A stretch of DNA of 25,194 nt, taken from Armatimonadota bacterium. GTDB taxonomy: Bacteria > Armatimonadota > Zipacnadia > Zipacnadales > UBA5352. Of the stretch, positions 6,001-9,000 are shown one piece after another (within the stretch, counting starts at the first letter, position 1; each line of letters starts with the position of its first letter). The stretch covers positions 21,110-46,303 of the forward strand of contig JAYENL010000059.1 in the NCBI GenBank assembly GCA_034722055.1, written 5' to 3'. The position numbers are program-made.

Positions 6001-9000
6001 CCGGCTGGACTCGAACCAGCGACCAACCGGTTATGAGCCGGTTGCTCTAACCTCTGAGCTACGGGCCCTTTGCAGCCAGATTATACCTCTGCCGCGGCGG
6101 GACGTCAACGCTGACGCCGGCTCCGGTGCGAATCGGTAGTGTCGGCGCCCCGCGCGGGCGAGGACGCCCCGCCTCAACACTCCCATCCGTTGCGGCGGGA
6201 AGCCGGTTGTTGGTCTACTCCAGGTAGTCGCGCAGGACCTTGTTGCGGCTGGGGTGCCGGAGCTTCTTGAGGGCCTTGGCCTCGATCTGCCGGATGCGCT
6301 CGCGGGTGACCTCGAAGATGTGCCCCACCTCCTCCAGCGTCCGCGAGTAGCCGTCCTCGAGGCCGAAGCGGAGCTTCAGCACCTCCCGCTCCCGCTCGGT
6401 GAGGTTGTCGAGGACCTTCTCGAGCTGCTCGCGGAGCACGGAGTTGGAGGCCACGTCCACGGGTGTGCCGACCTCCTCGTCCTGCACGAAGTCCCCCAGG
6501 TGGCTGTCCTCCTCCTCGCCCACCGGGGCCTCCAGCGACAGCGGATCGTGGCCGATGCGGTTGATCTCCGCCACCCGCTCCTCGGGCATGTCCAGCTCCG
6601 CGGCCAGCTCCTCGAGCGTCGGTTCCCTGCCGAGCTGCTGCAGGAGCATCCGGGAGGTGCGGTGCACACGGTTGATGGTCTCCACCATGTGAACGGGGAT
6701 GCGGATGATGCGCCCCTGGTCGGCGATGGCCCGGGTGATGGCCTGGCGGATCCACCACGTTGCATAGGTGCTGAACTTGTAGCCCTTCTTGTAGTCGAAC
6801 TTCTCCACCGCCCGCATCAGCCCCATGTTGCCCTCCTGAATGAGGTCCAGGAAGCTGAGGGTGGAGCGGCCGGCGTACTTGCGGGCGATGCTCACCACCA
6901 GGCGCAGATTCGCGTCTGCGAGGGCCTGAACCGCCTCCTCGTCCCGGAGCTTGAGCGCCTCGGCGTGCACGCTGTGTGGATCGATCTGGTTGTTGAAGTA
7001 CGCGACGACCTCACACCGGGGGCTGACCGCACGCTCCTCGTCGGCAGGACTGCGGCTGACCACCCCCGGCTCGGCGGCCCGCTGCCCGGCGATGAACTCG
7101 AAGCTCACCGGCTCCTGCAGCGGGAAGCCGGCGACGCCCTGCACGCCCTCCTCCCCGGCGTGCAGCTCCACGCGGTAGGTCATTCGGCCCGCCCACGGCT
7201 CCTGGGGCACGATCCGCAGGCAGCGCGCCTCCGGACTGTAGTGCACGGAGACGGCCACCTCCTGGCCCATGGAGTCGGTGACCGACATGGCCTTGCGCCT
7301 CACGCTCCTGGGGACGAGGTCCCGGTCGAGGCGTACGGCCACTGCGGAGGCGGGGTTAACCCCCACAGCGCCCGGCTCCGGGCTGGTCTCCACCACACGG
7401 GGGGCGGCCTTCTGGGTGGTCGTCGAGAACCGGAAGGTGACGTCCTTGCGGACTCGCTCGCCGCCCTCGCCGACCACCCCGTCCTCGCCCCCGCGAACGG
7501 TGACCACGAACTCGTTGCGGTGCAGCAGATTCTCGGAGGGGCGGAAGACGACCGTCTCGGGGTCGTCGCCGGGGCTGACCGTCCCCTCCACCGCCCGGCC
7601 GCGCGTATCCTCTACCTGGATGACGTCATTGGTCACTGACTCCGGCTCGAGGCCGGCGCTGAAGCGCACCTGGATGTCACGGTGTACCTCCACGTCCTCC
7701 TCGTTGTCGGCCGGGCGCGTTTCCCGAACCGTCAGCGGGGCGCTGGAGACCTTGGTGGTGAACGACCAGGAGACGTTGTTGCCCAGGTTCCGGCCGCGAA
7801 TGTCGCACAGGCCGTCCTCGGAGCCGTCGATGGTCACGGTGTAGGTGGTGCCCGGTCGCAGCCGCTTATCGGCCCGGAAGAGCACGCAGTTGCGGGCGGG
7901 ATCGAACCGTGCCGTCCCCTCCCCGAGGTGGATGCGCTTGGCCAGCTCCACCTCCTCGTCGGCGCTGAGCAGCGGCACCTTGCCGATGTTGCGCAGGTAC
8001 ATGCGCACGGAGTCATCGACCGGAACCGAGTCCGGCTCGCTGAAGTCGGTCTCCTCCAGGTCCTCGTCCTCCTCCTTATCCTCCTCCAGAGCATCCTCGG
8101 CGGAGGAGCCGACGCGGACATCCGCCTCCCCCAGCAGCGTGTAGACCTCCTCGATGTCCTCCGTCTCGAGGTCCTCGACGTCGCCGAGCGCATCCTGAAT
8201 CTCCCCGTAGGTCAGGTAGCCCTGCTCCTGGCCCTTGCGGATCAGACCCTTAACCTCGGCGAGGTCTTTGACCTCCTGGTCCTTCCCCTTCGCCAACCAG
8301 TCCAGCTCCCTTCGGCAATCGGGCGCTCGCGGCGTCAGCCGCGGGCCCGGACATCACTCGTCCAGGGAGAACGGGTCTCCCTCTTCGATCGCCCACTCAT
8401 CCTCCTCGGGCGCGACAGCATCCTCGGCCGGAGCAGTCTGCTCCTCGTCACCTGGCTCGGGCCGCTGTCTGGAGTGATCCGGCCGAGCCTCGGCTCCGGG
8501 ACGCGGCGCGCGCGCCCCATCGCCGATGTAGCCTCGCCCGCCCGAGCCGCGCAAGCGCCGGCAGGTCTCATAGTAGAGCTTCACAACGGTGTCGTCAGGC
8601 GTCAGCTCGCCGCTGTTGATCCCTGCCTGCACCTGCCGCTCCAGCTCCCGGAAGTCCTCCACGGACATATCGGAACCGCCGTCGGCCACGGGGGCGATCA
8701 GCGGGTCCGCCCCCCCGGAGCGCCGGTGCATCTTCAGCCGCCCGATCATCTGCTGAATCTGCTCGCTGCGGATCTCCTCGTCCTCCCGGCGGGACGGCCG
8801 GACCTCGGTTACGGTCAGTTCCACGCACCGCTTGCGGACCCCTTCCGCCTCGGGCAAAGCCTCGATGAGCGCGTCCACGTCCAGCCGTCCGCGTTCGGCC
8901 ATCTGCTCGCCCACGGCCTCCAGGATGACGGCATCAGTCTCCAGGATCATGTCCCCCGGCTGCAGCTCCGCCACCAGCGTGCGGGCCAGCTCCTGGTCAT

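Follow-up and report, generated by a model that had tools for sequence, protein, structure and literature searches.

No part of primary sigma factors is less well understood than the non-conserved region (NCR). In E. coli it touches DNA at -16/-17 and helps opening, NCR size has been linked to open-complex stability, and in bacteria with a short NCR this role falls to RbpA (10.1101/256826). Contact between the NCR and beta-prime also aids escape (PMC7403470). NCR lengths vary widely: 246-247 aa in E. coli, 72 in T. aquaticus and 29-32 in mycobacteria (10.1101/256826). Here we describe an RpoD from the class Zipacnadia whose 326-aa insert at this site consists of Ig-like Big_5 repeats. Our literature search found no report of such an insert.

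The RpoD resembles E. coli sigma70 (NCR residues 128-373) in its regions 1.1-4, insertion site, dnaG-rpoD gene order and domain 2 (rmsd 1.9 A over 92 residues). Unlike the E. coli NCR, its insert is all-beta in the model, built from Big_5 repeats and circularly permuted. The insert shares profile and fold with Big_5 (PF13205)/CopC-fold repeats such as the Ig domains of LdtMt2, CopC and the S-layer protein SbsC. In contrast to exported Big_5 repeats, however, it is cytoplasmic, lies in a presumably essential transcription factor, lacks a signal peptide and has one domain split. The lineage-specific insertions described in RNA polymerase beta and beta-prime (BEAN, HABAS/SBHM; PMC11515920, whose main text contains neither "sigma" nor "immunoglobulin") differ in fold and subunit, and the RpoD permutation spans three domains.

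A primary sigma factor with a split-repeat insert

The window, by which we mean the whole 25,194-nucleotide stretch of DNA analyzed, carries rpoD next to dnaG and a tRNA-Met gene (Table 1). RpoD matched all five sigma Pfam families over cut-off (regions 1.1, 1.2, 2, 3 and 4, with regions 2 to 4 at residues 460-681) and the TIGR02393 RpoD_Cterm model (379.2 bits versus a curated cut-off of 354). The TIGR02393 match was the only one in the genome, which is 92.7% complete. The sigma core likewise gave one full-length match, all others having E values of 1e-18 or weaker, and in the 15 class genomes checked there was one group 1/2 sigma match each. Two full-length models, PRK09210 and PRK05658, stayed below their cut-offs (510 versus 572 and 555), which a foreign insert would be expected to cause. 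dnaG lay upstream of rpoD in 61/61 loci whose flank reached 1400 nt or more, and tRNA-Met neighbored rpoD in 41/67 loci. Thus, RpoD is almost certainly the primary (housekeeping) sigma factor of the cell. The true start of dnaG is probably ~65 codons inside its ORF.

Table 1. Features of the rpoD locus (window positions; res, residues of RpoD).
Feature	Position	Strand	Evidence
rpoD, group-1 sigma-70 factor, 693 aa	6215..8296	minus	ORF with TTG start; Pfam and TIGR02393
Sigma region 1.1, res 13-83	8048..8260	minus	PF03979
Sigma region 1.2, res 95-125; its end, G125, is the left edge of the insert	7922..8014	minus	PF00140; helix 112-123; G001 alignment
D1 C-terminal half, split Ig domain, res 126-183	7748..7921	minus	Unit-profile positions 52-107 of 108
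D2, whole Big_5/CopC-fold domain, res 186-293	7418..7741	minus	PF13205 186-292; CopC 2c9r Z 14.3, rmsd 1.7, 95 aligned
D3, whole Big_5/CopC-fold domain, res 296-402	7091..7411	minus	Unit-profile positions 1-105; CopC 6nfq Z 13.4, rmsd 1.6, 94 aligned
D1 N-terminal half, split Ig domain, res 405-451	6944..7084	minus	Unit-profile positions 2-48
Sigma regions 2, 3 and 4, res 452-693	6218..6943	minus	Pfam/TIGR matches; mean column conservation 0.86-0.92
dnaG (DNA primase) ORF, directly upstream of rpoD	8354..10618	minus	TIGR01391 over cut-off from residue 68
tRNA-Met(CAT), downstream of rpoD	5993..6068	minus	
Near-consensus sigma-70 promoter (11/12) of the tRNA-Met gene	6080..6108	minus	2 sites versus 0.2 expected in shuffles

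Alignment with the RpoD of G001, a class genome without the insert, set the limits of the insert at residues 126-451 (326 aa; window 7921-6944); in G001 the two flanking residues are joined directly. The insert sits exactly at the NCR site, between helix 1.2 and helix 2.1. It matched PF13205 (Big_5) in three stretches (E 1.4e-39, 135.5 bits versus a cut-off of 23.6), and PF04546 (Sigma70_ner) gave no match to RpoD at E 0.01. A linear tandem of three Big_5 domains is ruled out by the order of the profile matches, which runs C-terminal half, whole, whole, N-terminal half: D2 and D3 are contiguous domains, and D1 exists only as two terminal halves. The halves are complementary, and the break between them falls on the repeat's hairpin turn. 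This order, with four unit-profile matches each, was found in 66/66 insert-bearing class loci; the first match began at position 40 or later in 60/66, and the last was confined to positions 1-50 in all 66. The same permuted order was present in 32/32 GTDB junction-pattern loci. The repeat period is ~110 residues in RpoD versus a median of 108 in its relatives.

An earlier note on this DNA had described a 693-aa primary sigma factor directly behind dnaG, with all-beta AlphaFold domains at 127-452. The gene assignment agrees with ORF, Pfam and TIGR02393, and the model of the whole RpoD is indeed all-beta across that span. The note had also placed a ~320-aa Big_5/Ig-like insert at the NCR site; the insert and its place stand, with the size now corrected to 326 aa. 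Its three tandem domains do not: the supposed first domain (126-183) is half a repeat, and residues 405-451, which had been left unassigned, are the missing N-terminal half of D1.

We wondered how the insert folds. AlphaFold modeled the insert alone with a pLDDT of 94.3, a pTM of 0.85 and no residue below 70, both halves included. In the model, the last strand of the D1 N-terminal half (448-452) leads straight into the region 2.1 helix (453-474). Sigma domain 2 appears intact across the insert: residues 100-529 superposed on 3ugo (Z 13.0, rmsd 2.1 A, 105 aligned) and on 1sig (Z 13.1, rmsd 1.9 A, 92 aligned). Because the model superposes on solved domain 2 structures, the ends of the insert are forced together. 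A complex prediction with the two D1 halves as separate chains scored 0.35 versus 0.00 for the best control, with 94% or more of the contacts common to the runs and a partner pLDDT of 64 or higher. This is weak support; halves of one fold can pass through likeness. The mark used was reached by 116/157 solved and 2/215 mismatched pairs, with 18 of the solved pairs and both mismatches at or below 0.60. Among the structural matches listed, no solved chain matched more than two insert domains at low rmsd, a comparison in which sequential aligners are blind to a split domain.

Most likely, then, the two parts of D1 come together in a single, circularly permuted domain. The insert is quite probably a closed intramolecular ring of three predicted Ig domains, with sigma grafted on a beta-hairpin. 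A circularly permuted cassette explains the fit between two adjacent sigma helices. Domain-swapped, circularly permuted tandem repeats (PMC4862688) likewise make one domain from halves of different repeats. Those states are misfolds seen in simulation, whereas the RpoD ring is apparently a fixed native state in which the old termini are bridged by two whole domains. For protein evolution, this shows how an elongated repeat with distant ends could enter a tight helical hairpin of an essential protein, by an out-of-register cut that leaves complementary end halves. As a rigid scaffold, the three-Ig ring is a further candidate for use.

Distribution and origin of the insert

An RpoD match at 1e-30 was found in 74/79 class genomes; the five others are 66-89% complete. 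The insert was spanned in one piece in 69 genomes and held in part by four (G015, G036, G063, G069), so that 73 of the 74 carry all or part of it and G001 has none. Further sigma-like matches, in G008 and G075 on contigs of 1.1 and 1.8 kb and in G004 within a fusion protein, were excluded from the alignment. Both tblastn and the profile search showed one copy of the insert per genome, and it has the same site in every bearer. Its scored span was 320-344 aa in 66/66 loci, with 23-69% identity to the window RpoD.

The insert is not an assembly artefact. Contigs from runs X2-X4 crossed both junctions with 0-3 differences (one study; X1 may be the source), and no joint skipping the insert was listed in four DNA runs. 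Thirteen bearers formed a clade without G001 (FastTree support 0.85), and in a 14-taxon IQ-TREE analysis the split placing G001 outside the bearers had a bootstrap of 50. G001 is likely a sister lineage of the bearers. The insert was probably gained a single time, by an ancestor common to almost all Zipacnadia; with a bootstrap of 50 for the G001 split, loss in G001 is a possible alternative. The insert is also a clean clade marker.

Other states of the NCR occur in the phylum. Only 42-48 residues separate region 1.2 from the region 2.1 motif in 22/29 readable outgroup loci, and neighboring lineages carry a different, helical-looking NCR of ~230 aa at the same site. These long NCRs are mutually homologous and form a second independent enlargement at this site. 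One phylum thus holds three natural states at one site: no insert (G001 and many others), a helical-looking insert of ~230 aa, and an Ig ring of 326 aa. Exchanged within a single sigma, these states would tell bulk, charge and specific contacts apart. Concerning distribution, the earlier note's 69 spanning genomes, its G001 exception, conservation across the class and absence from the other classes sampled all held, with G001 the one complete exception. Its 72 matching genomes and two partial ones become 74 and four, and in calling the long NCRs elsewhere unrelated it missed their homology to each other.

The insert very probably derives from exported Big_5 repeats. Twelve relative loci inspected encode whole tandem repeats, most behind signal-peptide-like N-termini, and none has a sigma motif. 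Under the same strict test, the permuted order was found in 0/161 non-sigma relatives versus 34/42 sigma proteins. A profile search of 1.84 billion proteins did not reveal the same cassette in other hosts among the best 150 of 40,604 matches, which were filled by giant repeat proteins and could hide small permuted cases. In the ESM Atlas we saw Big_5 clusters only, all under 0.8, which we regard as a lead only.

Selection on the insert

The dN/dS of the insert was 0.07-0.31 in 11/11 pairs, against 0-0.07 for the core. Judged by these ratios, the insert is under purifying selection, yet it evolves far faster than the core, at about the pace of region 1.1. Most of its conserved columns are fold residues (Gly, Pro and aromatic) common to exported repeats. 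At eleven positions, four of them arginines, only the RpoD domains show conservation and exported repeats do not. Common descent can also account for lineage-specific conserved residues. K449 and R451, beside helix 2.1, are basic in 62/66 and 61/66 loci. The net charge of the insert averages -6.8 (range -34 to +15), and a net acidic insert does not suggest a DNA-binding surface.

Possible roles of the ring

We propose that an exported tandem-Big_5 protein was the source of a three-repeat stretch whose ends were out of register with the repeats. An ancestor shared by almost all Zipacnadia would have acquired this stretch a single time, as an in-frame insertion separating helix 1.2 from helix 2.1. 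Its complementary end half-repeats would close it into a ring of three sandwiches, with the ends meeting at a beta-hairpin and domain 2 undisturbed. Domain 2 would then fold and read -10/-35 promoters in the usual way, and the ring would be a putative rigid stand-in for the NCR that is large and helical in proteobacteria. Its putative function, suggested tentatively, is to brace the polymerase clamp or upstream DNA. Somewhat more speculatively, a fragment of a surface repeat protein may have become a closed, triangular ring that serves as a permanently attached initiation module, a candidate built-in activator or clamp brace. If true, an all-beta structure would here do the work of the helical NCR of E. 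coli and of mycobacterial RbpA, and the insert would be a natural multi-domain cassette made insertable by circular permutation. RbpA, Crl, GcrA and GrgA sit on the sigma face from which the insert projects and are possible functional analogues (PMC7403470), but they are separate proteins of unrelated folds whereas the ring is built in.

We looked for features that track the ring. CarD_C was found in 1/79 class genomes and in 5/151 of a phylum sample, all weak, and RbpA in 0/5 class genomes; G001 lacks insert, CarD and RbpA alike. Pairing of the ring with CarD loss as a class trait is ruled out because CarD_C is rare throughout the phylum sample, and its rarity beside many minimal-NCR RpoDs means that lack of CarD needs no large NCR. 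A -35/-10 match scoring at least 8/12 lay upstream of 20/53 tRNA genes. Neither these 20 promoters nor 134 near-consensus sites revealed a new element read by the ring, a weak test because the sites were selected for consensus; the spacers were rich in GC and showed a modest preference for T/G immediately ahead of -10. No matching Ig insert was found in RpoB or RpoC of 15 genomes. A class-specific beta-prime insert was considered as a compensating change of the core polymerase, but it is also present in G001 and so does not track the ring.

Could the ring have no job at all? It would then be an entrenched passenger, tolerated because its ends meet and kept because partial deletion or misfolding would disrupt domain 2 of an essential protein, so that precise deletion is the only exit. 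Conservation concentrated at fold positions common to exported repeats, a dN/dS like that of region 1.1, the wide range of net charge, promoters without an added element, and the fact that G001 and most outgroup RpoDs read do without the insert are all consistent with this. Against it, the 66 aligned loci show no loss or change of repeat number although a deletion would make the protein 326 residues shorter, conservation at 11 positions is confined to the RpoD copies, and neighboring lineages have a second large NCR at the same site. We regard a passenger as rather unlikely, and give the same modest weight to a docking platform for a lineage-specific regulator, or a shield over a domain 2 face bound by activators or phage proteins. 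Ig sandwiches commonly bind proteins, and domain-specific conserved residues occur in all three domains. Since each of 15 genomes has a single group 1/2 sigma, regulation must act on RpoD. Region 1.2, the NCR and region 2 are the contact sites of RbpA, Crl, GcrA and GrgA, and in E. coli the NCR keeps Crl away by steric hindrance (PMC7403470). However, we found no candidate partner: the conserved neighbors are dnaG and tRNA-Met only, and RpoB and RpoC of the 15 genomes are free of Ig sequence.

The remaining explanations are far less likely than a brace, a passenger or a docking platform. The best structural matches of the insert domains are CopC, PcoC and YcnJ (Z 12-14), and RpoD matches the CopC profile PF04234 (E 8.7e-6); a ligand or metal sensor might bind copper or another ligand and signal to domain 2 via the hairpin. 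A shared fold shows no function, however. For Cu(II), CopC uses a free N-terminal His, and a domain inside a chain has none to offer. The conserved His/Met ligands of CopC have no counterpart here either: only four columns of His, Met or Cys are at or above 50% (37-42 of 66 loci), and they are dispersed among three internal domains. A sensor is very improbable, and we hold it equally improbable that the halves pair between two sigma molecules, so that the insert dimerises or stores free sigma. Tandem repeats can form such swapped, permuted states (PMC4862688) and the two-chain test lends weak support to pairing in trans, but the monomer model is complete and confident, and domain 2 needs both ends adjacent within one chain. 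Least probable is a mobile or self-removing element (intein, intron or selfish insertion) or an assembly chimera. The precise in-frame insertion in an essential gene and the permuted ends, as from a circular DNA intermediate, would fit an element; yet the profile matches shown include no intein, Hint, endonuclease/nuclease or transposase family, and GC3 is 0.91 in the insert versus 0.91 and 0.96 in the flanks. With its single copy at one site in every bearer, the absence of skipping joints in the four runs, and purifying selection, this reading is largely refuted.

In addition to the beta-prime insert that it shares with the class, G001 has a 266-aa insert in beta, which was seen in that genome only.

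The Ig-like insert of RpoD and its domain order

The sigma factor encoded in the window is a true member of the group-1 family. Its TIGR02393 score lies above the model's cut-off, dnaG lies directly upstream and a tRNA-Met gene downstream, and a search of the 6.1-Mb genome (92.7% complete) with the sigma core gave a single full-length match. Three Big_5 stretches score 135.5 bits against a Pfam cut-off of 23.6. The RpoD of G001, a 100% complete genome of the same class, has no residues between those that align with G125 and D452; the insert is therefore residues 126–451. Our insert alignment (A2) and length counts cover residues 127–448, four short of the full insert.

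We aligned the four insert pieces with one another. Residues 125–184 correspond to the second half of the repeat and residues 405–452 to the first, the two half-repeats meet at the hairpin turn, and their consensus lines are complementary parts of the generic repeat. A 108-position profile made from the two whole domains gave four matches, in identical order, in all 66 insert-bearing class loci including that of the window. The first match ended at position 91–107 and started at position 40 or later in 60 loci, extending into region 1.2 in the other 6; the last was confined to positions 1–50 in all 66 (E-values 2.5e-10 to 0.15). Among the proteins compared, and at the same strict cut-off, a C-half followed by an N-half occurred in 34 of 42 sigma proteins versus 0 of 161 non-sigma relatives. 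A right-hand-junction pattern, derived from class sequences and thus liable to miss a distant independent case, hit 32 loci in 185,579 GTDB genomes. All 32 have the same order; 31 are titled Armatimonadota, Zipacnadia or WS1, and one 'uncultured bacterium'.

An AlphaFold2 model of the whole protein, built on 63 sequences, has a helix (112–123), a strand (127–132), then, past the beta domains (pLDDT about 90–95), a strand (448–452) that passes without linker into a helix (453–474). Residues 100–529 of the model superpose on solved domain 2 structures (3ugo: Z 13.0, rmsd 2.1, 105 aligned; 1sig: Z 13.1, rmsd 1.9, 92 aligned); therefore, the insert ends must sit together. Folded alone, the insert reached pLDDT 94.3 and pTM 0.85 with no residue below 70 in either half, as one would predict for halves that complement one another within a rigid assembly. 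As separate chains, the D1 halves gave weak support for pairing, scoring 0.35 versus 0.00 for the best control (94% contact agreement, partner pLDDT at least 64), in a test that halves of one fold may pass by likeness and with an N-half submitted without its last strand. At scores of 0.60 or below, 18 of 157 solved pairs reached the two-chain mark, as did the only two mismatches (of 215) to pass at all. The insert is circularly permuted and probably a closed ring of three Ig-like domains; we infer closure strongly, from sequence and models. A swapped dimer is a highly improbable alternative. D2 and D3 resemble CopC (Z 13–14, rmsd 1.6–1.7), and we consider a metal-sensing ring very unlikely.

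Features of the window and of compared genomes
Feature	Location	Strand	Description
rpoD, 693 aa	window 8296–6215	minus	no internal stops
Sigma regions (Pfam)			1.1, 13–83; 1.2, 95–125; 2, 460–529; 3, 539–614; 4, 628–681
Insert, 326 aa	window 7921–6944		split domain D1 (C-half 126–183, N-half 405–451); whole domains D2 (186–293) and D3 (296–402)
Sigma-70 promoter, near-consensus	window 6108–6080	minus	just behind rpoD
tRNA-Met(CAT)	window 6068–5993	minus	next after rpoD in 41 of 67 loci
1326-aa protein	window 1805–5785	minus	nSTAND1 NTPase, HEAT repeats, PQQ-type beta-propeller
TPR protein	window 948–2057	minus	follows the nSTAND1 protein
RpoDs with a second large NCR (host genome)	L119 (G120), L123 (G200), L128 (G184), L129 (G132), L130 (G240), L182 (G080), L183 (G144), L186 (G166), L187 (G095)		about 225–250 aa, helical-looking, same site
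RpoB of G001	L088:439–5046		insert of 266 aa, internally repeated, near G000 RpoB position 237
RpoC of G000	L087:6828–11636		beta-prime insert at about residues 719–794 of the open frame, 56–138 aa among the class genomes aligned
Apparent sigma fusion, G004	L048:1313–3223		ECF-like sigma, middle domain, second RpoD-like region 2–3

Distribution and origin

At 1e-30, 74 of 79 class genomes matched RpoD: the insert is unbroken in 69, partial in 4 and absent from G001; completeness is 66–89% for the 5 genomes that gave no match. The insert is retained in almost the whole class. In a phylum sample of 401 genomes, coverage of the insert profile over 1–321 or 1–322 was confined to class genomes, 49 of 53 of which matched at 1e-78 or better. 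Outside the class, 41 of 348 matched weakly (best 2.5e-47). Nine top-scoring loci from outside the class, in 8 genomes, and three non-RpoD class loci all consist of whole tandem repeats, most with signal-peptide-like N-termini, and these 12 carry no sigma motif. Length and repeat number stay constant across families at 23–40% identity to the window. One 67%-complete bin (G064) has three insert-bearing RpoD matches (C11, C35, C262), one whole and two partial, which may reflect mixed binning or duplication.

A FastTree analysis of concatenated RpoB and RpoC from 28 genomes groups 13 insert bearers into a single clade and places G001 as its sister (support 0.85), and a 14-taxon IQ-TREE run gave the same split (bootstrap 50). 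A single gain is the simplest reading; the insert may instead have been lost in G001.

Both junctions are spanned, almost unchanged, by contigs of sequencing runs X2–X4 (the runs all belong to a single study, and X1 is possibly the source), and no listed joint skips the insert. GC3 is 0.91 for the insert, 0.91 for one flank and 0.96 for the other. That the insert is a mobile element or an artefact is scarcely credible. Used as a tblastn query on its own genome, it matched only itself; the single-repeat profile added one weak protein (E 1.3e-4).

Big_5 repeats form long arrays in exported proteins (median period 108), from which we infer the insert domains derive. A mid-domain cut of a piece three periods long would give exactly the observed half/whole/whole/half order. 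Looping-out of a DNA circle between repeats, with opening at another point, could have supplied the piece, as could a linear fragment with both its cuts at equivalent points; the two origins look indistinguishable from the sequences. With either one, the ends would be close enough for a site between two adjacent helices only if the cut fell at a hairpin.

The domain combination is already on record: public annotation calls these proteins RpoD, precomputed Pfam shows sigma paired with PF13205, and the pair occurs in 41 of 53 database matches to the insert (the window's own among them) and in all 120 matches listed for a full-alignment query. We found no description of the combination or of the permutation, and the open full-text literature yielded no account of a sigma factor with an Ig-like insert. 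The main text of PMC10290634, which names Zipacnadia, lacks sigma, RpoD, Ig-like and RNA polymerase; its supplements may list the gene. PMC11515920 treats beta and beta-prime insertions and circularly permuted HABAS topologies, and does not cover sigma in its main text; PMC4862688 regards the permuted states that tandem repeats can adopt as misfolds.

Possible roles of the insert

None of the searched papers and structures shows a non-conserved region (NCR) like that of the window's sigma. According to 10.1101/256826, the NCR of E. coli touches template DNA at -16/-17 through R157 and helps opening, open-complex stability is said to follow NCR size, and RbpA substitutes where the NCR is short. 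PMC7403470 describes an NCR/beta-prime contact that promotes escape and, with PMC4943231, several activators that dock on the NCR face of sigma.

We tentatively propose that the ring may brace, in an NCR-like role. Its position and rigidity point this way, as do the arginines at 4 of 11 RpoD-specific positions, the basic residues 449 and 451, and the enlargement of the same site, independently, in neighbouring lineages. So do the lack of an RbpA match in the 5 class genomes searched and the presence of CarD_C in 1 of 79. However, the charge of the insert is net acidic and variable, promoters look ordinary, conservation is mostly at the level of the fold, and CarD_C is scarce across the phylum, many members of which keep a minimal NCR. 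In all 11 independent close pairs the dN/dS of the insert is 0.07–0.31, compared with 0–0.07 for the sigma core and 0.02–0.41 for region 1.1 (by a simple counting method, with dS above 1 in three pairs). An entrenched passenger seems unlikely to us, and a ring serving as docking site or shield equally so.

CarD_C was nearly absent from the Armatimonadota sampled: the one class match lies in a 1.8-kb stretch of G039, and 5 weak matches were found among 151 in the phylum.

Other sigma and polymerase inserts, and further window genes

We retrieved 30 outgroup RpoD loci and could read 29; region 1.2 and the region 2.1 motif are 42–48 residues apart in 22, 70 in 3 and about 274 in 4. Six long NCRs of neighbouring lineages, a comparison that left out the also long L184 and L185, show homology to each other (24–61% identity) and none to the Ig profile; the one insert scanned had no Pfam match. 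Two hosts of the second large NCR, G080 and G144, fall in a clade adjoining Zipacnadia. Each of the 15 sampled class genomes yields just one group 1/2 sigma match at 1e-60, and many other families have 2–5.

At the RpoB site several other classes carry 54–105 aa and ring bearers none. The beta-prime insert is present in 11 of 11 class genomes aligned, G001 included, and nearly absent from 4 outgroups; a helical extension of the beta-prime clamp region has a variable acidic tip.

The scanned frames of long ORFs at window 10682–14260 and 20130–25091 gave no Pfam match, and some could be shadows of genes that lie on the opposite strand or in a different frame. The nSTAND1 and TPR proteins together have, by their domains, a STAND-type signalling or defence-like architecture.
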